Source: an uncultured Bifidobacterium sp. (lineage in GTDB: Bacteria > Bacteroidota > Bacteroidia > AKYH767-A > OLB10). Taken from it: DNA of 64,000 nucleotides. Each line of letters starts with the position of its first letter. Position 1 is the first letter of the stretch. Positions 8,874-58,576 of this stretch are shown here, piece by piece. The position numbers and the translations under genes were made by a program. The DNA is taken from assembly GCA_964534995.1 (NCBI GenBank), contig CAZHSC010000003.1, positions 4,252-68,251 of the forward strand, given 5' to 3'. Below the pieces are notes generated by a model that saw only the letters and a program-made list of their open reading frames with translations, did no database searches and had not been told where the DNA came from.

Positions 8874-8994
8874 AATTACAATTCCTCAGGGTATCTCGAT
8901 GTTACCCCTGCCATTATTTTTCAGGTCAGGCCAAAACTGTAAGAATTTTGCTCTTTTACACTACTTACAGCATGCTTACGCTTATTTTGCTGTA

Positions 8995-14968: not shown

Positions 14969-15054
14969 TGTGCTTTGGTTTTTTGATTTCCCCGGATGGA
15001 ATGATGGAATTATACCCTCCGGACCCTGGATGCAAAAATAGTTCTTCTTCCTCT

Positions 15055-16398: not shown

Positions 16399-16403
16399 TA
16401 ACG

Positions 16404-17687: not shown

Positions 17688-17725
17688 ATAATTCTTTTTC
17701 CTTTGCAGCTAATATTGTTATCCCT

Positions 17726-44448: not shown

Positions 44449-44493
44449 TTTATTTTTAAGCGGGTGCTGTTTACGAATGAGTTGATACGTTGT

Positions 44494-44934
44494 TTAATCT
44501 TTCCTCGGTTGCTCCTTCTGCCAAATCTCCAAACGCTCCTGCTCAGAGAGGATTCTGCCGTCACTTTGAACAAAGGGGAAGACCGTTCGCTTCCAGTCCT
44601 TGAAGCGTTTGAACTGGTATTTTAGATTTTCGTATTCATTTCTTTGCGCTTGCGACCAGGCGGCTCTGGCAGAACGCATACTATCTGCCTGTTCAGTTGT
44701 GATCCTGCCCTCCGTGATCAGTTCTCCCTCTTCTTCCGGCTCGATCTTTCCTTCCCAGAACATATCAAATGCTTTTACGGCAGTATAATAATTCACCTGT
44801 GGGTCTTCCATCATTTCTATCCATACAGGTATTTTATGGTAATCCTGTTGTTCAGTGGTTTTCTTTTCCTGGGCTTTCAAAGCGGTAAGGGTAAATGACA
44901 GCAGAAAGAGAAGCAGCAGCTTGAGGGATTTCAT
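44494..44934 (-). CDS. small secreted hypothetical protein
   Basis: Signal peptide (LLLLFLLSFTLTALKAQ). 45-bp gap to the downstream BNR-repeat gene suggests co-transcription. Confidence 0.4.
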   Translation of the reverse strand: MKSLKLLLLFLLSFTLTALKAQEKKTTEQQDYHKIPVWIEMMEDPQVNYYTAVKAFDMFWEGKIEPEEEGELITEGRITTEQADSMRSARAAWSQAQRNEYENLKYQFKRFKDWKRTVFPFVQSDGRILSEQERLEIWQKEQPRKD

Positions 44935-45053
44935 TTTCTTAATTTTTTTACTAAGTTAACGGTAAGCCCTCTTCTCTGCAACCATTACAACATGATCTTT
45001 GGCAGGTATATACCGGGTTAAGTGCTGACGTTTCTGTCACCGGATTAATAAGT

Positions 45054-45077
45054 GTTTGAAAGACACAATTTTCAAAC
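45054..45077. promoter_or_regulatory. 24-bp palindromic candidate operator upstream of the LOX-like gene
   Basis: GTTTGAAA-N8-TTTCAAAC perfect 8-bp inverted repeat, about 65-85 nt upstream of ATG 45140. Confidence 0.3.
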
Positions 45078-45139
45078 GGTTGGGATTTAGGGGTCCGCAT
45101 AATATTTATCCCTATCTTTAGTCATCCATAAAATACGCG

Positions 45140-47518
45140 TTGATTATGAAAAAAATGATACTGTTACTGTTGGTTTTATTACTAAAGCCATGGTCTCTGT
45201 ATAGTCAATGTCAGGCCGGTTACGATGAAGTCATTGTCGTTATACAGCCGGACAATTATCCTTCCGAAACTTCCTGGTCGCTCAAAGATCTGTCAGGAAA
45301 TATCCTTGATTCAGGCGGTTCAACAGGTGATACCGTTTGTGTTCCCACTGGTATTTGCCTGATATTTGAAATCCGTGATACTTATGGCGATGGCATCTGC
45401 TGTAACTTCGGCAATGGTTTTTACGCGGTTTATCTCAATGGTACCATTCAGGCAGCGGGCGGACAGTTCACTTACAATGAATTCAGCTATCTAAATTGTC
45501 CTCCCGGTACTCATTGCGGAAGCGCGCTGGCAGCATATGAAGACACCCTTAGCACTTCCTATGGCAGCAGCATCTGGTATACCTTTTCGCCTGACTCTAC
45601 GGGCACTTATAATGTTTCTACCTGTTTTCCTTCCAATAGTTGCGACACACGGCTTTGGATATATGATCACTGCAACGGACTTGTCTGGAACAATGATATG
45701 GCCGGCACTATTTATTACAATGACAGTACCTGCGGTATCCAGGCCTTCATCCCGGCGGGATTACAATCCGGGCAAACCTATTATATCAGGGTGGGGGGTG
45801 ACTCCACCTGTAGTAATGACAGTATCGTATGGCAGATTACCTATGCCGGACCTATTGTAGGGTGTATGGATCCCGCTGCCTGTAATTACAATCCCATCGC
45901 TACTGTCAGCAATGGCAATTGCATCTATCCGGGTGATCCTAATTGTAATTCAGGTCCTGATTTGGTGGTAGATGGAAATACGCTTATTAACTCACTGAAT
46001 ATGGGTGTGGTGAATGGAAACGATGTTTGCCTGATCGGTGAAGGGTGTTTGTCAGGCTACGGAGCCAGAAATGTGATTAATTTCAGTACGCGTATAGCCA
46101 ACATTGGCGATGCGGATTATTACATCGGGCAACCTGCCACCGGAAATTCTCAATTCGTTTTTGATCAGTGCCATGGCCATTGGCATTATGCAGGCTACGC
46201 GATGTATAACATTTACGATACGCTGGGAGTTCCCTTGCAGGCCGGATTTAAAAATGGATTCTGCGTCCTCGATTTACAGTGTTTTGGAGGTACGGCAAAA
46301 TACAGTTGTGGTAACATGGGTATTTCTGCCGGTTGTGCCGACATTTATGGTGCCGGACTCGCTTGTCAGTGGCTCGATATCACCAATATCCCTGCCGGCC
46401 GTTATACACTCGTGGTGCGTGTAAACTGGGATCAGGATCCGGATAAACTCGGACGACAGGAGCAGCGCTTTGATAACAATGTAGCAGCGGTATGTATCAA
46501 TATTACCCGTGATACAGCCAATGTCCCCTCTTTTGTGATACTTCCCAATTGTCAGCCCATTATTGATTGCGCCGGAGATACTTTCGGTTTGGCCGTTAAC
46601 GATTGTATGGGAAATTGTAATGGTTCGCGGGTACGTGGTGACCTTAACATTGACAGTTTGCGGGATGATATTGATATTGATATGTACCTTATTGATATTA
46701 CGGCTCAGCAAAGCGTAATGCCATGCAATGATGTCAATGGTGATAATACCCTTACCGTTACTGACGCTTCTCTGGTAAGTGGATGTATCCGTCAATCCCA
46801 GGGCTCGCATGCACATCAGGGCGGTACTCAAAATACACACAGGCATTGTGAATTTCCCTGGAACATTATCAATACCAATGATACAGTACGGCTAGGAATC
46901 AGTCAGGTAAATCAAAGCCTGAATTACATCGATATTAATATACTGAATCCCGATTGCCGTTTACTGGCCATTGACTTTACCATGAGCGGTGTGGTGATGG
47001 ATTCGGTGGTTTCATTGATCAGTGGCTTTAGTCCCTTTATAAAATGGGATGCAGTAACAGGACGTATCGCCATCCTGGATACGGCCGAAATCTCACTCGG
47101 GAAACAATTGACAGCGCTACCATTTGTGCGTATTTATTTTAGTTCACTTACGAGTACAACCGTGTGCCTTGCATCCATCCATGCCGCTGTGAATGCCGAT
47201 TACGAAGAAACCCTGAAAAGCATCTTCAATGGTTGTGTGACCGTTACAGGCATCAACATTCTCTATCAAAGCGGACTTGTTAAAATCATACCGAACCCTT
47301 CGGAAGGCATCTTTGCCATTTCTACTGATGTGCTTAATGGCGAAAGCGCAAACATCAGCATTCTGGATGCTATGGGCAGATTGATCTATGCTTCCAAAGA
47401 AGTACTCTCCGCGGGCAAAGGAATTTCAGTTGATCTCAGCAAACATCCCAAAGGTGTCTATCTGGTGCGTGTTCTTACCGGGCAACTTGAAGTAACCGAA
47501 CGACTGGTGAAATTGTAA
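45140..47518 (+). CDS. secreted lysyl-oxidase (LOX) family copper amine-oxidase-like protein with dockerin-like Ca-binding module and T9SS C-terminal sorting domain
   Basis: Signal peptide. LOX catalytic-domain motifs line up with human LOX: copper HxHxH (QCHGHWHY), LTQ lysine context (GFKNGFCVLD), GCADIYGAGLACQWLDITNIPAGRYTLVV, and NNVAAVC. Two DxNxDx6D loops (DLNIDSLRDDID, DVNGDNTLTVTD). Sorting domain KIIPNPSEGIFAIS...GVYLVRVLTGQLEVTERLVKL. Confidence 0.75.
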   Translation: MIMKKMILLLLVLLLKPWSLYSQCQAGYDEVIVVIQPDNYPSETSWSLKDLSGNILDSGGSTGDTVCVPTGICLIFEIRDTYGDGICCNFGNGFYAVYLNGTIQAAGGQFTYNEFSYLNCPPGTHCGSALAAYEDTLSTSYGSSIWYTFSPDSTGTYNVSTCFPSNSCDTRLWIYDHCNGLVWNNDMAGTIYYNDSTCGIQAFIPAGLQSGQTYYIRVGGDSTCSNDSIVWQITYAGPIVGCMDPAACNYNPIATVSNGNCIYPGDPNCNSGPDLVVDGNTLINSLNMGVVNGNDVCLIGEGCLSGYGARNVINFSTRIANIGDADYYIGQPATGNSQFVFDQCHGHWHYAGYAMYNIYDTLGVPLQAGFKNGFCVLDLQCFGGTAKYSCGNMGISAGCADIYGAGLACQWLDITNIPAGRYTLVVRVNWDQDPDKLGRQEQRFDNNVAAVCINITRDTANVPSFVILPNCQPIIDCAGDTFGLAVNDCMGNCNGSRVRGDLNIDSLRDDIDIDMYLIDITAQQSVMPCNDVNGDNTLTVTDASLVSGCIRQSQGSHAHQGGTQNTHRHCEFPWNIINTNDTVRLGISQVNQSLNYIDINILNPDCRLLAIDFTMSGVVMDSVVSLISGFSPFIKWDAVTGRIAILDTAEISLGKQLTALPFVRIYFSSLTSTTVCLASIHAAVNADYEETLKSIFNGCVTVTGINILYQSGLVKIIPNPSEGIFAISTDVLNGESANISILDAMGRLIYASKEVLSAGKGISVDLSKHPKGVYLVRVLTGQLEVTERLVKL

Positions 47519-47544: not shown

Positions 47545-47740
47545 AAACGCAGCCTACGCGGCGCTCGCAACGTCCTGAAGTCTTGGGAAAGCGGCGTGCG
47601 CGGCGAGTTAACATACAATTCCCACCTTCGCTGACTGTGTGCGCCAAAGCTTACTCCGTCGCTAAAGCTTTGGCGTACAAAGTTAGCGACGGCGTAAGCT
47701 ATGGAGGGCACGCCCGCCTTCGCTTAAGCTATGGTGAGAA
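47545..47740. other. GC-rich structured intergenic element with overlapping perfect inverted repeats
   Basis: CGCCAAAGCTT (47642-47652) pairs with AAGCTTTGGCG (47665-47675). CCGTCGCTAA (47656-47665) pairs with TTAGCGACGG (47683-47692). Direct repeat TAAGCTATGG x2 and CGCGGCG x2. Composition is very different from the flanking AT-rich DNA. Confidence 0.35.
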
Positions 47741-47909
47741 AACATGACATTTTCTGATCCACCTTGTTTGTATTCCGGGTTGAACCGGCATTCCTAAATT
47801 GGGATGAAATCAACAAGGCTCTGTTTTTTGATAAGATTTTTAAAATTTTAACATTAAAATATTTTGTCATTAGAAATTTAATTTTACTTTTGATTCAACT
47901 TTACGACCC

Positions 47910-48311
47910 ATGAAAACTATACAATTTCACCATGGTCTTTTAACAATTTTATTCTCGGCAACGACACTCCTTTTACAGGGACAAACACCTTCTGATGCGT
48001 ATGTGCTGATTTCACCTGACACCGGTAATAATGTAAAGGGTGTTATGCATATCACTTTACCGGATACCAATAACATTGCAGCCATTGAAATTAAGCTGGG
48101 CAGTACCGATGGCGGCTACGACTTAGCGAATTATACTTTTAGTTATGATGTTACCGGATCATTGCCTGCGGGATATGTATGGATGAGAGATGGTTTTAAA
48201 TTGATTCTTTCGATTGGGTCTTATCCTGTCAGTGATCTTCAGTTTGGACGAGTGCGTATGCAAAGAAATGATGGGGGATGGGGGGATGAGTTTGCCTTTG
48301 TGAGGAATTGA
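47910..48311 (+). CDS. small secreted hypothetical protein
   Basis: Signal peptide (LLTILFSATTLLLQGQ). 133 aa, no recognisable domain. Sits just upstream of the giant adhesin/GH gene. Confidence 0.4.
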   Translation: MKTIQFHHGLLTILFSATTLLLQGQTPSDAYVLISPDTGNNVKGVMHITLPDTNNIAAIEIKLGSTDGGYDLANYTFSYDVTGSLPAGYVWMRDGFKLILSIGSYPVSDLQFGRVRMQRNDGGWGDEFAFVRN

Positions 48312-48481
48312 GTTTCTTGTCTACTTTATCGGAAGACAAGATTTTCAGGATGTGTGACATTTAAGTGGATGTGGTTTGTTTGAACGGCTCTAAAAAGAGG
48401 TCGATAGTTGATTATCATCATTAGTCTGTAATTGTATATTCTAGTACGTAATTGATATCACCCATCAAAAACATGTAAACC

Positions 48482-48748
48482 ATGAATCATTTCGTCTATT
48501 TCTTAAGAAAGACCTTTCTCCAAGGTGTTTTCAAATTTCTTGCGTGTGTAATTCTTTTGTTGTTCTTTTCTACTTCATTATTCGCCGGCAACTACACATG
48601 GAACGGCACCATTAACAGCGATTATTCAAATACAGGTAACTGGTCGCCTTCTGGAACTCCCGGGACTAACGACACCATCACCATCAATTCCGGGAAACCT
48701 AACCTGGAACTGGATCAAGATAGAACCGTGAATCGGCTTATTCTCTAA
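48482..48748 (+). CDS. segment 1 of the interrupted giant gene: signal peptide plus start of the adhesin N-terminal repeat
   Basis: MNHF...LLLFFSTSLFA signal peptide, then GNYTWNGTINSDYSNTGNWSPSGTPGTNDTITINSG...TVNRLIL, ending at TAA. Confidence 0.5.
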   Translation: MNHFVYFLRKTFLQGVFKFLACVILLLFFSTSLFAGNYTWNGTINSDYSNTGNWSPSGTPGTNDTITINSGKPNLELDQDRTVNRLIL

Positions 48749-48778
48749 GGGAGCACAATAGATTTAGATACCAATGAA

Positions 48779-51700
48779 TTGCATGTCACACAACGGGCAT
48801 CCTTTAATGGTGGTGATGTCATTGGAGAGTCATTAAAACTGAGAGGAACTTATGCTTTCTTTCAGGGAACAGATTTTAATTGTACCTTAGATGTTGTGGT
48901 AGGACAAATAAAGTTTTCCGGCGGTACATTTGACCAGACCGGATCCTTTGAACAAAACGGCGGGGCCAGCGGTTGGGGTGAGGGCGGTTGCGTGTTTAAT
49001 GCTGAAGTAACTATTAAGAATACAGGAGCTACTTACCTGCGAATGGGAGAAAGTGAAGGAGATGTTTTTAATGATGTCGTTCATTTCTATTCTACCAACG
49101 TTTATGCGCTTCAATTGGCATATGGTGATACAACGATTTACAATAATGCTGTTTATTTAAATAGTACCGGAAATGGAGGAATATCATTTTGTGCAAGCCT
49201 GGATACAAATCATGTGGGTTATGCCCTTTTTGCACTGGAAGGAGAAATCCTTACCGGTAGCTCCGGATTTACTGCTGGTAATATTAATATGAAGCATCTT
49301 TTGTATGAATCCACCAATAGTGCAAACCTGACCGGTAGCGGTACCTCTACCCTTACCTTGAGCGAGAGTAATTTCGCCGGAAAAGTTAACTTTGCCTCCA
49401 CAAATATTTATGTAAAGACAACTGTATTCAATGATAGTACGCTGTTGGTGAGAAGCGGAGCCACATCATCTCAAAGTTGGTCAGGAGGTAATATTTTCAA
49501 AGGCGTTACTACGATTTCCAGTACTTTTTCGAGCAACACCAGTTATACATTTACACTGGCTTTAGATAGCGGTGATGTATTTGAGAAGGATGTGTATTTC
49601 AACACCCAAATTCTTACAATGAGAGTCGCATTTAAGGGAACCACTAAATTTTATGGAGATGTAAACATCAATAGCTCTAAAGTTGTATTCAATGCAGGAA
49701 GAGGTATTTTCATGTGCTCAGGAGAAATGAACCAAAGTATAGGCGGGAGTGCTGCTTATCTATTAGGGAAATTACACCTAAATAAGGAAGCGGGCAAGGT
49801 GGAAATGATGCGATCTTGTACCATTGATAGCAGTTTGACATTGAGTGGTGGCTTATTACAAACGGATTCTCTTATTTCTCTAAAATCTCCGGTGACTACA
49901 ACCGGCTCCTCTGCCAATAGTTTCATTGATGGCCCTGTGAAAAAAACCGGAAATTCAGCGTTTGTTTTCCCTATTGGAGATCAGGGCAAGTACCGGCCCT
50001 TAACTATATCTGCTCCATCACAGGCGACAGATGCTTTTTCTGCGCAGTACTTCTATAGCCCTCAGCAGGCAGGTACATCAACTGATACTACTATAGGGGA
50101 AATCAGTCCATGCAATTATTGGGATTTGCAACGCAAAACAGGCACCAGCAATGTCTATGTGACTTTGAGCTGGGATTCTATTGGCTGTTGCGTGCTGGAT
50201 TCTTCCAATATAAAAGTGATTAACTGGAATAATTCTGTCTGGAAGGATCTGGGCAAAGGTAGTCTTGGCGGCAATGCAAATACGGGTCAAATTACTTCAG
50301 CTATTGTTCCATATACTTATGGATTAATTACAATAGGGACAAATCCTATCATTATTAAAGATATCTTTCCTGTGGTAGATAGAAACAAAACTGATGAAGG
50401 CTGGTATCATTCTTTTGTTGCGGAAGACCCCATTTACGGCTACAATGGAAGCAATACCATTGAACCGGGAAAAAGTTGGCAGGATTATGCGAACGTAGAT
50501 CTCTTGAAAGAGAAAAATGTGAAGTCCTTACGAATACCTTCCGGCACCACTGCCAACTATTGGGATTGGAGGGAAGGATGGTTTTTAAAGGAGCATGAAC
50601 TCCCTGAGGGATGGTTGTACGAAAAGGAAAAATATAAAGCTGCCAACATCAGTGGAAATGAAATGATAAACATTAAACCACATGTAGATGAGTTGGGTGC
50701 TGCACCTGTTTATCTTTTTAACATGCTCACCTCCGATTTTCATTATCAATTGGCAAGTTTGTATAGAGCACATCAAATTAACTTGCCTGTAAAATTTGTA
50801 GAATTGGGCAATGAGTTTTATCTGAATGAAGCACACCATCGCAGTAAATTTCCAAACGCGAGTGACTATGCCGTAGCCTGCAATGACTGGACAAGTCAAT
50901 TAAAAGCTATAGCACCTTTTGCTGACGTGAAAGTGGCCGTGATTGGATGTGATGGTGGCGATGATTCACCGGGTAGAAGAAGATTATGGCTGGAGAGAGT
51001 GCTTGCCAACTTAGATCCGCAAGCCCAAATTGATGCTATAACTATTCATCAATATTATGGAAATGGATTAGGAAGTCAGCCTTTTAGTGGAAGTGCCGGT
51101 AGTCTTAAGACCATGCTTTCCCGGCCATTTAAAGAAATAGAACTGTTAATTGGTCATGAACTAAATCTCATCAATGACTTCAATGAAGGACCTCTTTCAG
51201 CATTTCCATTGAAAACCTGGATTACTGAGTTTAATTTACGCACCTCAGGTCATGGAAGCACGGGCACATGGGCACATGGCTTGTTTCATGCTGCAATGGC
51301 ATTGAGTTATCTGGAATCGCAAAATATCACATCGATTATTTCACATACTATGAGTAGTGATGTGCTTTTCGGAAATATTTTTGATTCAAATAATGGATTT
51401 GCCACTTATGCTCAAAATGGCAATTACCCACCCACGACCAAACAAAATGAATATACCGCTTTAGGAGCAGCTTTTAATCAAATTGCCAAAGCTGCCCGCT
51501 ATGCAACGGACGCATATAAAGTTGATTTTACCGGTATAGACGACCAGGATTTACCCTATCTCTATAATACAGGTGTTAATACCACTTCTGTAAGAGAGGT
51601 GTATGCCTGGCTCTTTGAAAGTGCTGCCGGCAATGAACTTATTGTGTTAAACCTGGGTGGTAATTCTTTTCATATGTATTTAGATGATATTTTTCAATCT

Positions 51701-52282
51701 GTCGGTCTTTCTACACACCCCATTCGTTATGAAAGGTTAATCAGTGTTGACATTACGGGCGGAATAACGGGAAGCCCTGTAACAAGTATTCCGCCAACTC
51801 CCGTTGGTTATGATAATTATTATCTGATTACGAGCAATGAACTTCCGGTTGCAACAAATTCAAACGGAACATTTGTTCCAATTTCAAATTACTCCCTAAC
51901 CCGCATCTCACAAAAACTTCCCGGATTTATTTTGAATGTTACGGATGATCATATTTGTACAAGTACCAGTACTGAACCCTCTACTACCTCAATAGTAATT
52001 ACCGGTGGTGTTTCTCCGTATACTATAGTTGAAACATCTCCTAATAGTAGTACAAGCTACTCCCAGCCCGATTCTGTTATAGCATTTACAGCACATCAAA
52101 CAAACACAGGAGTTTACACGATTACAGTTACCGATGCGAATAATTCAACTGCAACTGCAACGATTACAGTTGATACGCGTCCAATAGTTAATGTAACCTC
52201 CAATCCTACTTCAGGCAATTGCAATACATCATTCCAGTTAACAGCATCAATCAACCCGGCGCCTTCAAATTATGAGTATTAA
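48779..52282 (+). CDS. segment 2: parallel beta-helix repeats, clan GH-A TIM-barrel glycoside-hydrolase-like domain, Ig-like/SprB-type repeats
   Basis: The track start is a TTG codon. GH-A signatures RIPSGTTANYWDW, VKFVELGNEFYL (candidate acid/base Glu) and TWITEFNL (candidate nucleophile Glu). C-terminal Ig-like repeat (VITGGVSPYTIVETSP...YTITVTDANNSTATATITVD). Confidence 0.55.
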   Translation: MHVTQRASFNGGDVIGESLKLRGTYAFFQGTDFNCTLDVVVGQIKFSGGTFDQTGSFEQNGGASGWGEGGCVFNAEVTIKNTGATYLRMGESEGDVFNDVVHFYSTNVYALQLAYGDTTIYNNAVYLNSTGNGGISFCASLDTNHVGYALFALEGEILTGSSGFTAGNINMKHLLYESTNSANLTGSGTSTLTLSESNFAGKVNFASTNIYVKTTVFNDSTLLVRSGATSSQSWSGGNIFKGVTTISSTFSSNTSYTFTLALDSGDVFEKDVYFNTQILTMRVAFKGTTKFYGDVNINSSKVVFNAGRGIFMCSGEMNQSIGGSAAYLLGKLHLNKEAGKVEMMRSCTIDSSLTLSGGLLQTDSLISLKSPVTTTGSSANSFIDGPVKKTGNSAFVFPIGDQGKYRPLTISAPSQATDAFSAQYFYSPQQAGTSTDTTIGEISPCNYWDLQRKTGTSNVYVTLSWDSIGCCVLDSSNIKVINWNNSVWKDLGKGSLGGNANTGQITSAIVPYTYGLITIGTNPIIIKDIFPVVDRNKTDEGWYHSFVAEDPIYGYNGSNTIEPGKSWQDYANVDLLKEKNVKSLRIPSGTTANYWDWREGWFLKEHELPEGWLYEKEKYKAANISGNEMINIKPHVDELGAAPVYLFNMLTSDFHYQLASLYRAHQINLPVKFVELGNEFYLNEAHHRSKFPNASDYAVACNDWTSQLKAIAPFADVKVAVIGCDGGDDSPGRRRLWLERVLANLDPQAQIDAITIHQYYGNGLGSQPFSGSAGSLKTMLSRPFKEIELLIGHELNLINDFNEGPLSAFPLKTWITEFNLRTSGHGSTGTWAHGLFHAAMALSYLESQNITSIISHTMSSDVLFGNIFDSNNGFATYAQNGNYPPTTKQNEYTALGAAFNQIAKAARYATDAYKVDFTGIDDQDLPYLYNTGVNTTSVREVYAWLFESAAGNELIVLNLGGNSFHMYLDDIFQSVGLSTHPIRYERLISVDITGGITGSPVTSIPPTPVGYDNYYLITSNELPVATNSNGTFVPISNYSLTRISQKLPGFILNVTDDHICTSTSTEPSTTSIVITGGVSPYTIVETSPNSSTSYSQPDSVIAFTAHQTNTGVYTITVTDANNSTATATITVDTRPIVNVTSNPTSGNCNTSFQLTASINPAPSNYEY

Positions 52283-52309
52283 ACCTACTTATGGACACCT
52301 TCTACCGGA

Positions 52310-55300
52310 TTGGAAACATTTAACGGATCATGTAATCCGGGAGGAGTAACTCCAATGTGTTCTACTATTGTGGTAAACCCAGAGCAAACAACTTCCTATC
52401 AGGTGTATGTGTTTGATGGTACATGCTGGAGCCGGAGTAGTGAGTATGAGATACTGCGAGCACCCGTAAATCATGTGGATATTGGCGAAGATCTTACGGT
52501 TTGTTCAGATGGTGTTACTGGGCCAACTATTAAACTAAGCGCAATCCTTGATTCAGACCCAACCATAACTATTAGTGGAACTTATAATTGGACTATTTCC
52601 GGAACGTCCGGTAATATTCCTAATTGTTCCACGGATTGTGAAATACTATTACCTGCAACAATTGGGGAAACATATACAATAACGCTATCTCTTTTAGAAA
52701 GTGGATTTCCATGTTCAATTCCCGACGTAATGGAAGTTTATGTTACAGAATGTTGCGATTGTATATCAAATTCAATTTCTTTAAATCCAAGTCAAGGAAC
52801 GACAGTTGAAAATCATGTTTTCTCAAGCCAGCTTTCTCAACAAATGTTAAATCCATATTTCCTAAAAGCGAATGAAGATTTTGAGCCTATTTATGATATT
52901 AAAGGATGGATTCCCGTTGTTTATCCGAACACGTCTCAAACACCAAACAGCAATACCATTTGCATCAACGGAGATTTAATAATTGACCGGGATATAGCGT
53001 TTCGTGATGTCATTTTAAGGATGAATGAGAATAGTAAAATTAGAATTTTAGATGATCATTTACTCATTTTGCAAGGATGTAGTATTAAAAGTTGCGACAG
53101 AACTATTCCTGCTGCTATGTGGGATGGAATCGAAGCGGAAAGGTTACTTGATAAACGGGAACCTCGACTTTTTATTGACCAAAGTAGCACAAACAGAACC
53201 TCTATTTCTGAAGCTAAAAGTGCTATTTCTTTAAAAAACGGAGCAGAATACATCATTGAAAACACTGATTTCACCAATAATTATGTGGATATTGATGTGG
53301 CCGATTATGGGAATGTAATTCAACAAAACACTATTACCGGCACATCCAAAAAACTTTTCTCCGTCCACTCCAATACCTTTTCCAACTCGGTGGACCCGCT
53401 ACTTCCTCCTTATGATAATGTGCATAAATTCGCCGCCATCCGTCTGGATGATGTGGAGCGGTTTGTGTTAGGGGATTCAACCGACGAGGCTCACAGAAAT
53501 TCAATTAACAATTCAATTTATGGAATTCGTGCGATGAACTCCGGTTTTGAAGTATATAATACCGGGTTTAGTGATATAGAAAATTTAGATAATTGGTCAA
53601 CGAAAACATTGGCCGGAAGCGCGATTTATGGAGATGGCTTTAACGATGGTGCGGATAGAAATGTGTTGATTGGAGCTACGACAGCGGGTACAGGATTCAG
53701 AAATGTTTTTAATTCATCTGTGAATGGTATTGTTTCGGTTGGAGAAACGAACTTGAAGGTGTTTAATAATGAATTTGGTAGTGGTAGTACCAATGAACGA
53801 CTTGTGAATTATGGAATATGGACACATGGTAGTAATAAAAAATCTGTTTATATCACTCGCGGAAATGAGTTTTATGATTACTATGTTGGCATCAGGAGTT
53901 TTGGGATTCATCCGGATGGTATCTATCATATAGGATTTAATAATTTTTTCAACGCCTATATCCCAAATTGGAGTGTAGTGAATTCTTTTCAGGGTACAGC
54001 TATTCATATGTCGAATAGTTATGTACCACCATCTTTTATTGGTCAATCAGAAGTTCCTCCAATTAATATTTACAACAATGAAATTGGACAAATAAATGAT
54101 GAAGCTGAAATTGAACCAAGAATAGGGATTTTCACCTCTAATATTTATCAACCTATCATCCAAAACAACAATATTTATTATTTCAGAGCAGCACAGGTGT
54201 CTAAACCGCATAGCATTGGTATCTGGGCACAAAACTGTATTGCACCAAGAGTAGCAGGGAATTTAATTTTGGAGCACCAAAATATTAATCAAGGTTATGG
54301 TGCTAACCTCATTGGTATGAAGTTCGACCGAAATATTAATCCTTGTATTGGCAGCCAAAGTATTACAGAAAATTTAGGCTATGGAGTAAGTTTTTGGGAC
54401 AATAACGGTCAGGTGACCTTATCTACCAATCAATTTACAAACTGCGACCATGGCGTAAATTTAGACTGGGCAGAAATCGGCACACAAGGTGACCCCGACC
54501 GAACCGATGATAATGAATGGGTCGATCGAAGTGTTAGTCCGGTTCTGAACCGCGTGAATGGTCTTACTCAAAGTAATCTTCCAATTACCTGGTATTATCA
54601 ACCTACACCAAATGCATTTTCGCCACTGCCGAGTACGATTGTCGACGATCAAGACATTAATCCTAATCTACCAATTTTAGATTGTCCAATTATTCAAAAT
54701 GTTGCCCCTCGCAATCAGACTTTTGGATATGTTATTGGCGACTCCGCCCGATATGAAGAGAACTATCAGAGTAGTTTCAGCTACAGTGCAAAAATGATAA
54801 CCTACAAAATTTTAAAACGGGACAACTCGCTCATGGAAATGGAAGATGAGACGGATGAATCGTTTATAGATTTTTACAATGCTATGAGTCAAAGCAATAT
54901 AGAAAAATACGATTCCGTTGCGCTTTTAATTACACAGGGCGAATTTGCTGTTGCTGCTGCATTACTGGCAGGTATTGAAGATACCAATGACCAGGAAACT
55001 TACCTTACAAATTTTTATACACTCTACCTTACAAAAATTGCGTATGATTCCTTGTTAAGTAATGCGGATAGTTCGTTGCTAATTGAAATAGCCTATTCTC
55101 ATTCACTATTGTATGGAGATGCAGTATACCTGGCCCGTAACACTCTGTTTCTTGAAATTCATGATGAAACACTTGAAAGCAATTTAAGAAGAGCTTTTAT
55201 TAGTAAACTTCCTGAGAATAATAATTTATCAACTCAACCCAATCCTGCGTCTTTACTAACTCAAGTAAGGCTGAACGATGAAGAATATTCCGGTAGAGTG

Positions 55301-55453
55301 CAGTTGCTAGATGGACATGTTCAGTTGATAATAGATCGTAACCTCCAAAATGGATGGTTAGATGTAAAGAATTTGAATCCGGGAATTTACTTTATAAAAA
55401 CGTTTGGTGAAGGAACTTCACCGTTATTGTGTAAGCTTGTAATTATCCGATGA
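52310..55453 (+). CDS. segment 3: Ig-like repeat continuation, right-handed beta-helix region and T9SS C-terminal sorting domain
   Basis: Begins inside a YxYxWxPxxGL-type repeat (TYLWTPSTGLETFNGSCNPGG...TTSYQVYVFD). Long beta-helix-like repeats. Sorting domain at the end (PNPASLLTQVRLNDEEYSGRVQLLDGHVQLII...GIYFIKTFGEGTSPLLCKLVII). Confidence 0.55.
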   Translation: METFNGSCNPGGVTPMCSTIVVNPEQTTSYQVYVFDGTCWSRSSEYEILRAPVNHVDIGEDLTVCSDGVTGPTIKLSAILDSDPTITISGTYNWTISGTSGNIPNCSTDCEILLPATIGETYTITLSLLESGFPCSIPDVMEVYVTECCDCISNSISLNPSQGTTVENHVFSSQLSQQMLNPYFLKANEDFEPIYDIKGWIPVVYPNTSQTPNSNTICINGDLIIDRDIAFRDVILRMNENSKIRILDDHLLILQGCSIKSCDRTIPAAMWDGIEAERLLDKREPRLFIDQSSTNRTSISEAKSAISLKNGAEYIIENTDFTNNYVDIDVADYGNVIQQNTITGTSKKLFSVHSNTFSNSVDPLLPPYDNVHKFAAIRLDDVERFVLGDSTDEAHRNSINNSIYGIRAMNSGFEVYNTGFSDIENLDNWSTKTLAGSAIYGDGFNDGADRNVLIGATTAGTGFRNVFNSSVNGIVSVGETNLKVFNNEFGSGSTNERLVNYGIWTHGSNKKSVYITRGNEFYDYYVGIRSFGIHPDGIYHIGFNNFFNAYIPNWSVVNSFQGTAIHMSNSYVPPSFIGQSEVPPINIYNNEIGQINDEAEIEPRIGIFTSNIYQPIIQNNNIYYFRAAQVSKPHSIGIWAQNCIAPRVAGNLILEHQNINQGYGANLIGMKFDRNINPCIGSQSITENLGYGVSFWDNNGQVTLSTNQFTNCDHGVNLDWAEIGTQGDPDRTDDNEWVDRSVSPVLNRVNGLTQSNLPITWYYQPTPNAFSPLPSTIVDDQDINPNLPILDCPIIQNVAPRNQTFGYVIGDSARYEENYQSSFSYSAKMITYKILKRDNSLMEMEDETDESFIDFYNAMSQSNIEKYDSVALLITQGEFAVAAALLAGIEDTNDQETYLTNFYTLYLTKIAYDSLLSNADSSLLIEIAYSHSLLYGDAVYLARNTLFLEIHDETLESNLRRAFISKLPENNNLSTQPNPASLLTQVRLNDEEYSGRVQLLDGHVQLIIDRNLQNGWLDVKNLNPGIYFIKTFGEGTSPLLCKLVIIR

Positions 55454-55461
55454 CATAGACA

Positions 55462-56985
55462 ATGAAAAGTGTAGCCGTACTTGCTTTCTTTCTTTTTACT
55501 ACCATTTCTTTGTATGCGCAAAAATACAAAGGGAATGTATGGTGTTTTGGGGATTCAGCTGGAATTGACTGGGCAAATCCTAATTCTCCAATATTTTTTA
55601 GATCGATGATGCATGGAAGGAGTGGCACGGCAAGTATTAGCGATAGTAGTGGGAATTTAATATTATATTCTGGTTATAAGCGTGAACCAGCAAATAATCG
55701 TGGATGGATATTAAATAAATTCCATCAATTAGTACCCAATGGTGACACGTTGTATTTTCAAGATTGGTATCATTCTGTCATCCTTCTTCCAAGTGTAAAT
55801 GATTCAATAATTTATTTGTTTTCAGTTAGTGTTACAAATATTCAAACCTATGGCCTTTATTACAGCACGGTCAATTACAAAGCTAATAGTGATTCCGGAA
55901 TTGTTACACAAAAAAATATCCAGTTAAACAACCTTCCGGCATTTGATGGATTGGCTACTGTCAGGCATGGAAACGGACTGGATTGGTGGGTAATATTTAA
56001 GGATTATGACCCTACACCGCCTTACACTTTAAGCAGTAAATTTTATATCTATTTGGTCGATGCAAATGGGCCCGCACTTCATCATACCCAGACGGTCGGA
56101 ACTGTTTTTAATGATGGAGGAGGGCATTCACTTTTTAATACAGATGGCTCTAAATTTTACTTGTGTACTTGGGGAGGTGCCATTGAATATTTTGATTTTA
56201 ACAGATGCAATGGTTATTTTTCAAATCCAACAGTAATTGAACCAACAAGAAGCGCTCAACCTTATCCTTATTATAACTCATTGGCTTTATCTCCTGATGA
56301 AACAAAGCTGTATGTGTCTGCATATTCTCAATACAACTCATTAGGCGGTACCGATTCTTTGTACCAGTTTGATTTAACAGCGGCTAATATTTCTGTCAGT
56401 AAAACACATATTTATGGCGCACCAAATACTTATGTTGGACTTGGAGCATTAAGAAAGGCTCCTGATGATAATATATACTTAGCTGCTACTTATTTAAATT
56501 ATTACCCGTATCAGGACACTTCTTACAACGTTTATAACACCCACCTTTCCGTCATCAACCAACCCGATTCACTCGGCCTTGCCTGCGATTTTCAACCCTT
56601 CAGCTTTTACCTCGGGGGTGCCAGAACATATAACGGCCTTCCCAACAATCCCGATTACGAACTCGGCGCCTGGGTGGGTTCTCCTTGCGATACGCTGAGT
56701 GTGGGTGTGGATGATTTTCAACCCCCAAAGCAAACGTTTTTTCAAGCCTGGTATAATAGTGAGTGGAATATGATTCACGTAAACGCCTCTAAACTTAAAG
56801 GTAGAACGGGAAGTTTGCGCTTGTTTGATATGGAGGGGAGGTTGGTGTATGAGAAAAAAATTGAGGTGAAAGCGGGAGGGTATGTAACGGGAGAGATACC
56901 GATGAATGCGGTCGTGAATGGAGTTTATCTTGTCAATTTAATAACTGATTCGGAAAGTGTTTCGTCTAAGATTGTTAAATTTTAG
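55462..56985 (+). CDS. secreted beta-propeller (lactonase-like) protein with T9SS C-terminal sorting domain
   Basis: Signal peptide. Propeller-blade motifs (SPDETKLYVSAYS, FNTDGSKFYLCTW). Sorting domain (GSLRLFDMEGRLVYEKKIEVKAGGYVTGEIP...GVYLVNLITDSESVSSKIVKF). Confidence 0.6.
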   Translation: MKSVAVLAFFLFTTISLYAQKYKGNVWCFGDSAGIDWANPNSPIFFRSMMHGRSGTASISDSSGNLILYSGYKREPANNRGWILNKFHQLVPNGDTLYFQDWYHSVILLPSVNDSIIYLFSVSVTNIQTYGLYYSTVNYKANSDSGIVTQKNIQLNNLPAFDGLATVRHGNGLDWWVIFKDYDPTPPYTLSSKFYIYLVDANGPALHHTQTVGTVFNDGGGHSLFNTDGSKFYLCTWGGAIEYFDFNRCNGYFSNPTVIEPTRSAQPYPYYNSLALSPDETKLYVSAYSQYNSLGGTDSLYQFDLTAANISVSKTHIYGAPNTYVGLGALRKAPDDNIYLAATYLNYYPYQDTSYNVYNTHLSVINQPDSLGLACDFQPFSFYLGGARTYNGLPNNPDYELGAWVGSPCDTLSVGVDDFQPPKQTFFQAWYNSEWNMIHVNASKLKGRTGSLRLFDMEGRLVYEKKIEVKAGGYVTGEIPMNAVVNGVYLVNLITDSESVSSKIVKF

Positions 56986-57019
56986 GTGAGAAACAATTTT
57001 AGTTGACAATAGTATTTTT

Positions 57020-57290
57020 TGCTGCTTGCTTCTGGCTTCTGGCTGCTCGCTATTTTTATTTTAAGAATTATACGTTAGAATTAATTTGACTGCGCCTCTT
57101 AAAAACTCTGCGTCTCAGCGACCTCTGCGTGAAACCATTGATGTTGCTTTCCATTCGAAAAAAATAGATTAACGAAGAAAAATTAATTATGATTTTAGTT
57201 GCATAAAAATCTTCGTCTTGATGTAAATTATCCTTTTTACCACGGAGTCACAGAGAATTCACGGAGCAACACGGAGGAGTTTTCATATCA
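57020..57290. repeat. AT-rich intergenic region with short tandem oligo-repeats
   Basis: GCTTCTG x2 plus GCTGCT. CTCTGCGT x2. CACGGAG x3 at roughly 10-nt spacing. CATTAATTC x2. Lies between convergent genes. Confidence 0.3.
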
Positions 57291-57349
57291 CAAGAATTCT
57301 AAACACTTAAAAACAATCATCAACTCATTAATTCAATAATTCATTAATT

Positions 57350-58576
57350 CTATTTTGGTGCAATATATTTTTTTTGCCTCCCTCGGTGGTTGATGTCAAA
57401 GAGCAAGGTGCCCATCACTGCTGTTAATCCATCGGAACGTTGATACCATGCCAGGCGCAAACCAATGCCTTTTGTGAAGTACTTGCGTTGTTTTTTTTGC
57501 TGAGGCAGGAAGTAAAACTCCAGTCCGGCTTTGATGGCATTGAATGCAGAGAGGTCGAAATCGGAAGTATAAAAATGGGCTGCGGGAAGATGTGCTGCTT
57601 TGGTGTTGAAATAATGCGATGCACTTTGCGTGTAGAGGCGGAGGAATGGTCCGGCGTAGAATCGGTTGGTGAACTTATAGCTGAGTTCTTCTTCAAAAGT
57701 GAGGGCCTGGATACCAAAATTATCGGAGTAAAATCCAAACTCACTGCGCAGAATACTTCTCTTGCCGGCAAACCAGGTGTTGTGGAGGCTTGTACCATAT
57801 TTCCACCGTTCATTCGGTAGTTTTTCTACCCGAAGGTCGCCGTCGTTGAAGTACACCCGGTGAAAGGGCGTACTGAGTAATCCCCGCTGATAACTGACCA
57901 AGGGAAGTACACGCATCTGCATCCTTCTGTTGATGATGAAGGAATAGGCCGCCTGAAAATTGTATGATTGTCGCTTGTTTTCAGTAGACCATTCTTTGTA
58001 GCGTAGCCCGGCAGGATATATCAGTCGGACAGCTTTATAGTAATCTGGATTCAATCGTCCCCAGCGGAGATCATCAAAGGAAGCGTCGAAGTAAAGGAGG
58101 AGTTGCCTCCCGCTGCTGTCTTTTTTCGTCGCGTAGCTCACCCGCAGTGGAATTGCCAGATAATCCGATTCGATGGAGATCCCCGTCCCAATGGCCAACG
58201 ATTGCTCTTGTTCGCCTTTGCGTATAAGGGTACCGTTAGCATGGACTCTTCTATCTACCCTGGAGGCGGAGGAAATGACATAATCAATATTGTCGGTGGA
58301 TGCGGAGGTGATGATATCAACACCTGCCTTCCAGTTCAGCGAGAATTGGCTTCCAATGGCATGCGTAAGCTGAAGGCTCGTGGCCTGTACGTTGAGTTTT
58401 TCGGTGCCGGCACCTCCCGTTACCGCGCTATGTGAACCCTCCTGAAAATAGGTAGAGTAGAGGGCTTTGATTTCGGTGGGATCAATATTTTTAAACCGAT
58501 AGAGGCTGTCACGCACCTGCGCTTTGCCTGAAATACCAAGGCAAATCATTCCGGCGATGATGATTTTCTTCCTCAT
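57350..58576 (-). CDS. DUF3570-family outer-membrane beta-barrel protein
   Basis: 408 aa with a signal peptide, which is the typical DUF3570 length. Beta-barrel-like alternating pattern. Last gene of the trx-apbE-DUF4266-DUF3570 operon. Confidence 0.6.
   Translation of the reverse strand: MRKKIIIAGMICLGISGKAQVRDSLYRFKNIDPTEIKALYSTYFQEGSHSAVTGGAGTEKLNVQATSLQLTHAIGSQFSLNWKAGVDIITSASTDNIDYVISSASRVDRRVHANGTLIRKGEQEQSLAIGTGISIESDYLAIPLRVSYATKKDSSGRQLLLYFDASFDDLRWGRLNPDYYKAVRLIYPAGLRYKEWSTENKRQSYNFQAAYSFIINRRMQMRVLPLVSYQRGLLSTPFHRVYFNDGDLRVEKLPNERWKYGTSLHNTWFAGKRSILRSEFGFYSDNFGIQALTFEEELSYKFTNRFYAGPFLRLYTQSASHYFNTKAAHLPAAHFYTSDFDLSAFNAIKAGLEFYFLPQQKKQRKYFTKGIGLRLAWYQRSDGLTAVMGTLLFDINHRGRQKKYIAPK

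Follow-up and report, generated by a model that had tools for sequence, protein, structure and literature searches.

A probable flexible genomic island of T9SS-cargo genes in an uncultured member of the Bacteroidota

Does the AT-rich run of secreted-protein genes lying between a lysyl-oxidase gene and a DUF3570 gene share the history of the chromosome around it, or did it come from elsewhere? The original prediction, made on the whole 64-kb stretch of DNA analysed here (the window), was that 47.8-57.3 kb is more AT-rich and codon-biased than its surroundings and has a distinct, possibly horizontal, history. The compositional part is borne out. The GC content is 0.387 in 47800-57350 and 0.465 across the remaining window, the example stretch 52700-53100 has 0.337 against 0.480 for purL and 0.503 for acs, and the 9,551-nt segment with the minimum GC of the entire 64 kb begins at 47801. 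Non-overlapping 500-nt segments give 0.391±0.022 in the island (n=20) and 0.466±0.034 in the remainder (n=108; Mann-Whitney p=5e-11), and three of the 108 outside segments are as low as the island mean. Moreover, GC3 is 0.30-0.35 in the four island ORFs versus 0.41-0.58 in all 47 remaining ORFs, which bears out the codon bias; GC2 of the island ORFs is not reduced, so the dip is driven by codon choice and not by amino-acid content. The tetranucleotide z-score correlation with the backbone is 0.42-0.65 for the island and 0.72±0.045 (minimum 0.654) outside it, and the corresponding frequency distance is 0.021-0.030 versus 0.0117±0.0023, so that composition is non-uniform by all three measures. 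In seven of seven loci compared, cassette GC3 is lower than flank GC3. The window holds other genes for secreted or T9SS cargo (41314-44448, 45140-47518 and 3500-5236), the first two being GC-normal neighbours of the island; since such genes have normal GC elsewhere in the window, low GC is no general property of cargo genes here, and secretion is not the cause of the AT-richness of the island genes.

The limits of the unit were drawn from alignments with sister species B (L006) and C (L001/L007) and with a cassette at another locus (L028):

47606-57357, forward strand: island, a single discrete unit of about 9.75 kb (GC 0.389) comprising the whole cassette and its non-coding arms, aligned continuously to the L028 cassette
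45140-47518, forward strand: left flank backbone gene, lysyl-oxidase-domain T9SS cargo (Pfam) with a normal GC3 of 0.44, syntenic in L001, L006, L007 and L027
47519-47605, forward strand: backbone outside the island, GC-rich sequence directly after the lysyl-oxidase stop, 88-95% identical in L001, L007 and L006
47606-47618, no strand: left junction, where backbone-like sequence switches to cassette-like sequence within the short common motif AGTTAnCATnA (three-way alignment of window, L007 and L028)
47619-47835, forward strand: left non-coding cassette arm with GC-rich palindromic repeats, aligned to L028 1320-1536
56986-57195, forward strand: spacer after the propeller gene, with an oligo-repeat tract at 57014-57055 (GCTTCTGGCT-type) and CTCTGCGT repeats, missing at this locus in the sister species
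57196-57353, forward strand: conserved 3' element of the cassette, about 155 nt (alignment of window, L007, L006, L008, L005 and L028)
57350-58576, reverse strand: right flank backbone gene, DUF3570 protein (Pfam), syntenic in all relatives and the outgroup

The L028 cassette matches 47606-57059 at 86.8% over 9,550 nt and 57145-57357 at 77%. Homology to the sister-species backbone stops at 47615 (L001/L007) or 47609 (L006) and picks up again at 57226/57325, i.e. about the stop of the DUF3570 gene, which opens the conserved block DUF3570-DUF4266-ApbE-thioredoxin-hutU. At the left junction, similarity is limited to the shared motif of about 13 nt. The original prediction had taken two repeat elements as the island boundaries. 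Both do lie near the ends, but both are parts of the transferred unit and not marks of the recipient site, and the left one (47545-47740) fails as an edge, its stretch 47545-47615 being conserved backbone. The left arm carries inverted repeats at 47625-47711 and, on the minus strand, two border-repeat units at 47654 and 47715. This unit, AGCTT[CT]AGCGAAGGAG, is confined to cassette borders, namely those of the window, of L002/L008 (on both sides) and of L005 (three copies), against a chance expectation of 0.65 per 64 kb. The oligo-repeat tract recurs in intergenic DNA elsewhere (L001 6244-6277, L006 14271-14298), and the L028 cassette has it on either side. The 3' element consists of CACNRAGG repeats, a T-run and three to four copies of the 8-mer TCATYAAY, and terminates at the DUF3570 stop codon; in 374 kb searched with nhmmer, each propeller locus has it once (E 1e-35 to 1e-45), and a single further copy is partial. 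It has no Rfam match, and no convincing conserved fold was found in it.

The coding content of the unit agrees with the expectation that it would be exclusively secreted or T9SS proteins: all island genes have a signal-peptide-like N-terminus, and two have a T9SS C-terminal domain (CTD).

47910-48311, forward strand: small ORF of 133 aa, first cassette gene, signal-peptide-like N-terminus, no known family
48482-55453, forward strand: giant T9SS cargo gene of 2,323 codons, cut by two in-frame TAA into three ORFs that share one frame
48746-48748, forward strand: premature stop 1, TAA at codon 89 (TAC in L028, TAT in L008)
50234-51730, forward strand: clan GH-A glycoside-hydrolase domain within the giant gene, a (beta/alpha)8 barrel in the AlphaFold model (pTM 0.78)
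52280-52282, forward strand: premature stop 2, TAA at codon 1267 (TAC in both L008 and L028), within the conserved family motif Y-x-W-x-P
55462-56526, forward strand: propeller gene, signal peptide and fast-diverging 7-bladed beta-propeller body (AlphaFold model with generic 7-bladed propeller matches; GC 0.365)
56527-56742, forward strand: propeller gene, strongly conserved pre-CTD linker with many invariant residues in 40 homologs, the gene's GC maximum (0.509)
56743-56985, forward strand: propeller gene, T9SS C-terminal sorting domain (Por_Secre_tail 23.7 bits), a confident beta-sandwich in the model

In L002, L008, L028 and L003/L004 too, the giant gene is preceded by an ortholog of the small ORF (133-136 aa), and the L008 and L028 copies are 93-94% identical to the window ORF in amino acids. 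The giant gene encodes, in order, a signal peptide, N-terminal repeats, a clan GH-A hydrolase, Ig/PKD-like domains, a right-handed beta-helix, a helical region and a C-terminal sorting domain. Its intact full-length homologs have 2,281-2,344 aa (2,321 in L008, 2,334 in L028), and Pfam finds Por_Secre_tail in 14 of 14 family members, with PKD, Beta_helix and Glyco_hydro_cc weak. Within 303 nt, the sequence departs from L028 only by the C>A change at 48748, and intact homologs have Ser, Asn or Tyr at codon 89. As read from this metagenome-assembled contig, the giant gene appears to be recently inactivated in this genome by two TAC>TAA changes. Foldseek with the hydrolase model ranks GH51 arabinofuranosidases at the top (E=1.8e-12, TM 0.55), then GH79, GH30, GH44 and GH5. 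The predicted barrel with an added beta-sandwich resembles clan GH-A, whose closest folds are GH51 alpha-L-arabinofuranosidase and GH79 beta-glucuronidase/heparanase, and so do the invariant Asn-Glu (acid/base) and Glu (nucleophile) motifs in the expected strands; the glutamates of ELGNE and WITEFN are unchanged throughout the giant family. Unlike known GH-A enzymes, however, the domain sits inside a 2,300-residue protein and shares just 12-15% identity with them, and it has no significant CAZy-family Pfam match, except a weak Glyco_hydro_cc in two homologs.

The synteny of the block is not conserved in related genomes. In the outgroup (L027) the order is hutU-Trx-ApbE-DUF4266-DUF3570 / lox / orf147 / BNR-PKD / pcrA / DUF4290, and the site is empty: the gap between DUF3570 and lox is only about 250 bp and encodes no cassette protein. 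Sister species B and C have at this site only a 508-aa propeller paralog and the 3' element. The cassette itself is found at four other sites, i.e. between DPPIV and photolyase genes (L002 and L008, the latter being another locus of sister species C), between pdxJ and M48 (L028 and L003/L004, with both flanks in common at 84% and 65-73% amino-acid identity), adjoining priA (L005), and, as a remnant, between RidA and an ABC transporter (L026). The remnants in L028 and L026 demonstrate that deletions within cassettes do happen.

The divergence of the island sequence also departs from that of the backbone. Relative to species C, four-fold-site divergence is 0.208 (n=756) in 47910-53577 versus 0.559 for the seven backbone genes compared (n=1,097; Fisher p=3e-53), protein identity being similar in both. 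The identity to L008 then drops sharply at about 53400-53577, and from codon 1698 to its end the giant gene has 42% amino-acid identity to L008 with a four-fold divergence of 0.75. Furthermore, the island alternates in patches between two cassette alleles, those of L028 and L008, with 131 runs versus 344 expected at 704 informative sites (z=-16.5).

48525-49141, forward strand: mosaic patch nearest the L028 allele by informative-site runs, 96-100% identical to it
51886-53242, forward strand: mosaic patch nearest the L008 allele, 97-99% identical to it versus 64-93% to L028, with a 204-nt exact match at 52540-52743
53458-54600, forward strand: mosaic patch nearest the L028 allele, with a 502-nt exact match at 53852-54353, where the L008 allele is unalignable

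The exact matches of 502 and 204 nt occur where the backbone is only 76-81% identical. In these alignments, the synonymous divergence and the near-identical patchwork show that DNA was evidently exchanged between lineages after their split, although L028, the nearest allele, could be a paralog from the same species instead of a foreign donor.

Recombination of sorting-domain modules had been hinted at for the propeller gene, whose end looked GC-richer than its body. The final 426 nt are indeed GC-richer (0.453 versus 0.365), but the linker causes the rise, since the sorting domain proper has a GC of 0.399; the linker has a pLDDT below 35 in the AlphaFold model. The hint of module recombination holds as a property of the whole family, in which body identity and CTD identity are uncorrelated across about 120 homologs. 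For the window body, identity is 45-53% with the copies of the sister species, 78% with that of L028 and 81-82% with that of L026, which belongs to the outgroup genome. The window CTD is 88-95% identical to copies whose bodies are 36-78% identical, and 66% identical to the copy that is closest in body. Thus the nearest body belongs to a distant-genome copy (81% body, 66% CTD), and the nearest CTD to own-clade copies (89-90% CTD, 45-53% body).

Taken together, we consider it likely that this is a flexible genomic island: three T9SS-cargo genes form a self-contained cassette, which belongs to a shared allele pool and whose pieces are swapped by homologous recombination. Genome comparison indicates that, once this lineage had split from the empty-site outgroup, the cassette was gained in the interval where the lysyl-oxidase and DUF3570 genes converge, that it evidently belongs to a pool of alleles residing at differing chromosomal sites in related and unrelated Bacteroidota, and that, after speciation, the window copy apparently traded segments with two or more other alleles. 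Against this reading weigh the shortness of the motif at the left junction and the absence of any mobility gene, tRNA, terminal repeat or phage gene to mark the unit. At this site the ancestor of the window genome and its sisters had either a full cassette, of which the sisters then lost part, or a propeller alone, which was afterwards replaced. Crossover anchors may be provided by the conserved stretches, which are the N-terminal half in the giant gene, the pre-CTD linker and the sorting domain in the propeller gene, and outside the genes the 3' tail and the GC-rich border repeats. The variable stretches, at the C-terminal third in the giant gene and the body in the propeller gene, would be swapped wholesale. 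The low GC, chiefly at third codon positions, would be the mark of the mobile pool that the alleles share. In every host the cassette is the AT-richer of the two, and the contrast is presumably greatest here owing to the GC content of this host, which is the highest among them. As predicted from sequence and model, the proteins are probably shown or released at the cell surface, where they would bind and cut polysaccharide, and surface variation is a likely selective reason for the turnover.

That the cassette is instead native and vertically inherited, its low GC coming from forces specific to these genes (for instance weak expression, selection relaxed during gene decay, or the amino-acid content of repetitive surface proteins), and that the sisters lost most of it, is in our opinion very unlikely. 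AT-richness relative to the flanks in every genome could indeed be intrinsic to these genes, the giant gene is a pseudogene here, deletions within cassettes occur, and at the site the sisters still have this 3' element alongside a related propeller. However, the syntenic outgroup site is empty, over 5.7 kb the synonymous divergence is 2.7-fold smaller than in the backbone, beyond which it abruptly reaches saturation, the patchwork is near-identical to two alleles at other loci, and the sisters' resident propeller body is just 45% identical, versus 80-96% for backbone proteins. Intact homologs are equally AT-rich, so gene decay is not the cause of the low GC, and the unreduced GC2 and the normal GC3 of the other T9SS cargo genes in the window also speak against such an origin. 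A single vertical history is thereby already largely refuted, and the distinct history proposed at the outset is supported by composition, non-conserved synteny, low synonymous divergence and the patchwork of near-identical segments.

It also seems unlikely that a classical mobile element (an integrative element, a transposon or a prophage remnant), inserted site-specifically or by transposition, makes up the island or carries it. Such an element would account for the same right end in four contexts, with the 3' element always stopping within a few nt of the adjacent gene, for the GC-rich palindromic repeats confined to the cassette borders, for the direct repeats flanking the L028 copy and for the foreign composition. 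But there is no integrase, transposase or phage-like protein in or beside the island and no tRNA in the 64-kb window, no terminal direct or inverted repeats join the island ends beyond chance (the longest common word is 10 nt versus a shuffled mean of 9.4), left ends vary between contexts, and a mosaic interior is what homologous exchange typically leaves. An artefact of assembly or binning, in which a cassette of another locus or organism was joined to the contig via shared repeats, is scarcely credible, even though the window is a metagenome-assembled contig, related assemblies have long-read indel errors, and the propeller 3' end and the 3' element each exist in several copies, 85-90% identical, that could mislead an assembler. 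It would need two independent mis-joins back to exactly adjacent backbone positions, the left one via that very short motif, at the same site where the sisters hold related cassette DNA, and the island is a fine-scale mosaic unlike any one other copy.

As a flexible island, the cassette is a clear yet fairly ordinary example. Its cargo resembles type A T9SS cargo (PF18962 / TIGR04183) in the N-terminal signal peptide, the C-terminal beta-sandwich of about 80 residues matching Por_Secre_tail, and the large bodies of several domains, with glycoside hydrolase, PKD and beta-helix modules among them. Unlike typical members, the two CTDs of the cassette score slightly under the Pfam cut-off (21 and 23.7 bits versus 27), although the family overall matches, and secretion is predicted, the machinery lying outside the window. 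Salinibacter ruber has low-GC, pseudogene-rich flexible surface islands of the 'metagenomic', replacement type (PMC2800850). Like those, this island is low in GC relative to the genome, contains a pseudogene, encodes exposed or secreted cell-surface products, varies in content at one site among close relatives and would turn over by recombination without an obvious mobile element. It is much smaller (9.75 kb, three genes), however, codes for proteins and not polysaccharide-synthesis enzymes, and occurs as the same cassette at several chromosomal sites with its own conserved non-coding tail and border repeats; moreover, 'metagenomic islands' are defined by under-recruitment in metagenomes, and this one is known from genome comparison. 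In Porphyromonas gingivalis, CTD-bearing T9SS surface proteins (gingipains, HagA) undergo allelic exchange and domain rearrangement (PMC5266723). Both cases involve T9SS cargo with a conserved sorting domain of about 80 residues and a mosaic of variable modules unrelated to genome phylogeny, ascribed to homologous recombination and gene conversion. The families differ, being a GH-A/beta-helix giant protein and a beta-propeller here and not proteases or adhesins, and exchange here is among species-level or deeper lineages of uncultured environmental Bacteroidota and not strains of one pathogen, with the whole multi-gene cassette also shifting its chromosomal location.

The DNA at 47606-57357 of the window is an insertion, since the same site between the lysyl oxidase gene (lox, 45140-47518) and the DUF3570 gene (57350-58576, minus strand) is empty in a syntenic outgroup. 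Genomes for comparison, which form three tiers, were reached through genes related to DUF3570, which adjoins the boundary; scanning metagenomes with the DUF3570 protein yielded no relative. Sister species C (loci L001 and L007, 98-99% identical mutually) and sister species B (locus L006, 88-93% identical to L001) have a backbone that is 76-81% identical to the window (baseline 0.79±0.06). The outgroup locus L027 (GCA_016717725.1) shows amino acid identities to the window of 49% for DUF3570, 69% for lox and 92% for hutU, and it keeps the whole gene order with only about 250 bp between DUF3570 and lox. The site thus holds nothing in L027, a lone 508-aa propeller paralog with its 3' element in species B and C, where the small ORF and the giant gene are lacking, and the whole cassette in the window; the body of the lone paralog is 45% identical to that of the window propeller. 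Hence synteny of this block is not conserved among the relatives. Another difference from species B and C is of normal GC content: a BNR/sortilin-PKD gene (1,044 aa) and a 146-aa ORF (window 41352-45135) are absent from both species, and because L027 has both genes at the same place (77% and 75% amino acid identity) this represents a deletion in the B/C lineage and not an insertion in the window. The features of the cassette are as follows.

47910-48311, plus strand: small ORF, 133 aa, with a signal-peptide-like start (...LLLQG followed by QTP)
48482-48748, 48779-52282 and 52310-55453, plus strand: giant gene, present as three ORFs in the same frame
55462-56985, plus strand: propeller gene, 507 aa, with a signal-peptide-like N-terminus (...SLYA followed by QKY) and a T9SS C-terminal sorting domain (CTD)
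57196-57353: non-coding 3' element

The original prediction had described an AT-rich block at 47800-57350, and it proved to be the strongest compositional feature in the window. Its GC content is 0.387 vs 0.465 in the remaining window, and the lowest-GC stretch among all 9,551-nt windows of the 64 kb starts at 47801. In non-overlapping 500-nt windows, GC is 0.391±0.022 in the island (n=20) vs 0.466±0.034 outside (n=108; Mann-Whitney p=5e-11). GC3 is 0.30-0.35 in four island ORFs and 0.41-0.58 in all other window ORFs (0.33 vs 0.52 for island against host), while GC2 of the island ORFs is not lowered, so the dip is carried by the third codon positions. The tetranucleotide z-score correlation to the backbone, a measure independent of GC, also deviates (0.42-0.65 inside, 0.72±0.045 outside). 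Secretion is not the cause of this AT-richness, since GC3 is normal in the neighbouring genes for cargo that bears T9SS sorting domains, at 45140-47518 (lysyl oxidase) and 3500-5236, and also in the secreted BNR/PKD gene at 41314-44448. Gene decay can be set aside as well, because intact copies of the cassette are as AT-rich as the broken copy in the window. Across all seven loci examined, cassette GC3 is 0.25-0.34 and always below that of the flanking genes (0.35-0.52); the window shows the widest gap, a consequence of having the GC-richest backbone.

Small ORF, giant gene and propeller gene occur together at several chromosomal locations. In species C the trio lies between DPPIV and photolyase (loci L002 and L008, 99.4% identical), with an intact giant gene of 2,321 aa in L008. 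In another genome (L028) and in the much more distant loci L003/L004 it lies between pdxJ and the M48 peptidase gene, where both flanks are shared (pdxJ 84%, M48 65-73% amino acid identity) while the cassette proteins are only 49-61% identical, which suggests that this is an old home site. In a further genome (L005) the cassette adjoins priA. The outgroup carries a remnant (L026 10001-13903) with two tandem propeller genes that are 86% identical in DNA and, between them, a 260-aa fragment that matches only the C-terminal 256 residues of the giant protein; the remnant looks like a cassette cut down by internal deletion or unequal recombination. In L028 (10800-10990), 3' of the propeller gene, there is a leader remnant (…AAATCATAATAATCTTAAYAAATCTGCGGCC…) directly before the 3' element, and species B and C have the same leader ahead of their lone propeller paralog, suggesting that some cassettes once had a second propeller gene. 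The L002 genome, with its lower-GC flanks, was considered as a distant donor and rejected, since accession numbers and L007 show it to be the same species as L001.

Divergence between the alleles indicates exchange. Window 47835-53577 is 91.6% identical to the species C cassette at its other locus, and the match stops abruptly within the giant gene. For the small ORF and giant codons 1-1698, divergence from species C at four-fold sites is 0.208 (n=756; proteins 92-94% identical) vs 0.559 (n=1,097; proteins 80-96% identical) for seven backbone genes (Fisher p=3e-53), and beyond codon 1698 it is 0.75 with a protein identity of 42%. Moreover, the cassette is a mosaic made of the following patches.

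48525-49141 and 53458 onward: L028-like, including a 502-nt exact match
51886-53242: L008-like, 97-99% identity, including a 204-nt exact match

A runs test of L028 vs L008 affinity at 704 informative sites gave 131 runs vs 344 expected (z=-16.5). Judged from these alignments, neither vertical descent nor selection at the protein level can produce such a patchwork together with this pattern of divergence. Synteny, the low four-fold divergence and the mosaic patches support the claim, made in the original prediction, that the block was acquired horizontally or at least has a distinct history.

The ends of this discrete unit are fixed by the L028 alignment, which is continuous over 47606-57059 (86.8%) and is found again over 57145-57357. 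On the left, backbone-like sequence switches to cassette-like sequence at 47606-47618, within a shared AGTTAnCATnA motif, and on the right the island ends at the DUF3570 stop. Repeat elements had been predicted as its boundaries; the repeats are present, but with the ends set in this way they lie within the unit, apart from 47545-47615, which is conserved backbone just past the lox stop. A GC-rich palindromic unit, AGCTT[CT]AGCGAAGGAG, occurs solely in non-coding DNA bordering cassettes (window, L002/L008 and L005), and in L002/L008 it stands on both sides of the cassette in direct orientation. Its copies, and those of the 3' element, are at the following positions.

Window 47654-47669 and 47715-47730, minus strand: AGCTT[CT]AGCGAAGGAG
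L008 9236 and 18584: AGCTT[CT]AGCGAAGGAG
L005 8978, 9005 and 9036: AGCTT[CT]AGCGAAGGAG
L007 11224-11379, L006 4793-4968, L008 18625-18776, L005 9157-9311 and L028 11045-11197: 3' element

A second palindromic repeat family, TCCCGATAGYTATCGGGA, is found in the empty lox-DUF3570 site of the outgroup (L027 11260-11350) and also adjoins cassettes in L028 (about 1190-1215) and L005 (about 9060-9090). The intergenic sites that receive cassettes seem to be rich in such palindromes. The oligo-repeat at 57014-57055 is of a dispersed kind that occurs in intergenic DNA. The 3' element, about 155 nt of non-coding DNA directly 3' of the propeller gene, is present once at each of eight loci (374 kb) and is made up, in this order, of three to four CACNRAGG repeats, a T-run and three to four TCATYAAY 8-mers. 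A terminator, a regulatory site and a recombination site are candidate roles for it. It is not called a structured RNA, since RNAalifold gave -5.5 kcal/mol with no covariation; Rfam had no match in the whole window at the gathering threshold and, in the island at E<=1, only a pair of microRNA matches, both spurious, to the hairpin at 47626-47711. Seventeen loci from a metagenome pattern scan for the element were discarded as chance matches, none having a cassette protein or extended similarity. No direct or inverted repeats beyond chance link the two island ends, with neither terminal repeats nor target duplications found; there is no tRNA in the 64 kb, and searches for an integrase or transposase gave no Pfam, PHROG or PADLOC match.

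The three ORFs at 48482-55453 are one gene, since intact giant homologs (2,281-2,344 aa) align over 98-100% of the translation read through both stops and have sense codons at both stop positions. The ORFs are parted solely by a TAA at 48746 and a TAA at 52280. Both premature stops (48746-48748 and 52280-52282) are third-position C>A changes of TAC to TAA that are unique to the window copy, the closest alleles having TAC or TAT (Tyr) at these positions, and C>A at 48748 is the sole mismatch to L028 across 303 nt. Reassignment of TAA or programmed read-through is unlikely because both stops are unique and derived from a TAC that the closest alleles keep. On this sequence comparison, either the gene was knocked out by two very recent changes or the assembly has consensus errors here. 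The L002 copy has lesions of its own, a GGG>GG deletion at 8940-8945 (in the same region, around codon 90) and GAA>TAA at 9920-9922, while the nearly identical L008 copy is intact; the homopolymer deletion in L002 may be a long-read error. L001 has two ORFs in place of one for both the lysyl oxidase and the pcrA ortholog (13086-15457 and 15727-18144), and in L007 lox is intact and pcrA is uncalled. Indel errors in long-read assemblies typically leave such split ORFs, a reason for caution with pseudogene calls in these MAGs.

The N-terminal Sec signal peptides of the three island proteins, all hydrophobic, were read directly from the translations, that of the giant protein ending ...SLFA before GNY. 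A T9SS CTD is present in 14 of 14 giant homologs (best E=5e-11), with weak PKD, beta-helix and Glyco_hydro_cc matches, the last in two of the 14, and most propeller homologs have a precomputed PF18962 match. In the window, the CTDs score 21 bits (giant, E=4e-4) and 23.7 bits (propeller, E=6e-5) against PF18962/TIGR04183, the sorting domain of type A T9SS cargo, and so fall short of the 27-bit cut-off. No known family matches the small ORF or most of the giant protein; no Pfam GH family reached threshold in the window giant protein that would name a CAZy family, and a PDB profile search returned CTDs as sole matches. The model of giant residues ~585-1083 (pTM 0.78) has its best Foldseek match in GH51 (E=1.8e-12, TM 0.55), followed by GH79, GH30, GH44 and GH5, so that this region is modelled as a clan GH-A (beta/alpha)8 barrel. 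The motifs ELGNE (E774-L-G-N-E778) and WITEFN (W913-I-T-E916-F-N918) are invariant among 14-16 giant homologs, and their glutamates are predicted to be the clan GH-A catalytic pair, with an Asn-Glu acid/base and a Glu nucleophile. PHROGs and PADLOC showed no phage or defence homology, and no T9SS machinery genes were identified in the 64-kb window.

The propeller protein has three parts, namely a generic 7-bladed beta-propeller, a linker (residues 346-423) and a CTD beta-sandwich that is confident in the model (residues 425-507). The linker (56527-56742) is the most conserved stretch of the family, and dozens of its residues, two Cys among them, are invariant, yet its pLDDT is <35; its folding may require a complex, or it may be a processing or recognition segment ahead of the sorting domain. 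The sorting-domain-encoding end had been predicted to be GC-richer than the body, and the last 426 nt are indeed richer (0.453 vs 0.365), but the peak lies in the linker (0.509, the GC-richest part of the gene) and not in the CTD proper (0.399). Conservation steps up at about residue 355 (~56540), which was considered as the right junction between island and backbone. This was rejected, since a divergent body with a conserved C-terminus is found in every pair of the family, and since L028 stays aligned up to the end of the gene and across the 3' tail. Nor is the CTD end more conserved than the backbone, as it falls within the upper backbone range and the lysyl oxidase CTD behaves alike. The sorting-domain part of lysyl oxidase (47180-47518) is among the most conserved DNA relative to species C (0.87-0.92, mean 0.79), and CTD-coding ends may be strongly conserved as a rule here. 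Compared with the sister-species copies, the window propeller is 45-53% identical in the body and 89-90% in the CTD, while compared with the outgroup L026 copy it is 81% and 66% identical, respectively. Among about 120 homologs, body and CTD identity do not correlate (Spearman -0.19 for comparisons with the window and -0.03 when all pairs are taken); in 732 of the 845 pairs with CTD >=85% the body is <60% identical, and in 65 of the 151 pairs with body >=75% the CTD is <70% identical. These identities indicate that the histories of body and CTD are uncoupled across the family, bearing out an earlier hint at recombination of sorting-domain modules, and the simplest reading would be that modules recombine, or undergo gene conversion, at the conserved linker.

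Considering these data, we assume that the exchange would proceed by DNA uptake followed by homologous recombination for which conserved stretches and repeats serve as anchors, with the C-terminal third of the giant protein and the propeller body replaced jointly, and that the lone propeller of the sister species, which shares the 3' element, would represent a site already holding cassette homology. The island proteins probably act at the cell surface on polysaccharide, and surface variation would be the likely selective driver. It is also conceivable, though we consider it improbable, that the cassette is a non-autonomous mobile unit, with palindromic border repeats on the left and the ~155-nt tail on the right, moved between palindrome-bearing intergenic sites by an enzyme encoded elsewhere, for which a REP-associated tyrosine transposase or some other recombinase might serve. 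If that were true, surface-protein cassettes would be shuffled among loci and species by a dedicated system of the Bacteroidota.

The island provides a clean and well-delimited case of secreted/surface-protein variation in uncultured wastewater Bacteroidota, in which a whole cargo cassette shifts its chromosomal site, its pieces are swapped between species, and functional parts are replaced while the sorting signal and the conserved linker stay constant. It also defines a previously unannotated three-gene family that has a conserved non-coding tail and occurs in many metagenomes. That T9SS sorting and passenger domains can have separate histories bears on cargo evolution and on the engineering of secretion tags. 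For annotation, the ORFs at 48482-55453 should be treated as a single giant gene that was apparently inactivated recently, unless the stops are consensus errors. Like a classical genomic island, the cassette has deviant composition and codon usage and is absent from the site in relatives; unlike one, it has no mobility genes, tRNA insertion or flanking direct repeats. It agrees better with a flexible (replacement-type) island, in that one site, lox-DUF3570, has different or highly divergent content in relatives, and phylogenetic incongruence and mosaic structure point to exchange by homologous recombination; surface structures are typical of such islands, and the genes here encode signal peptides and T9SS sorting domains consistent with a surface location. 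In Salinibacter, low-GC flexible islands that contain pseudogenes encode surface traits (PMC2800850), and the window island behaves like them in its low GC, its apparent pseudogene and its predicted surface proteins. In P. gingivalis, CTD-bearing cargo undergoes allelic exchange (PMC5266723), which the window island resembles. Thus a low-GC recombining island of surface proteins belongs to a known type, while the three-gene cassette family itself is undescribed.
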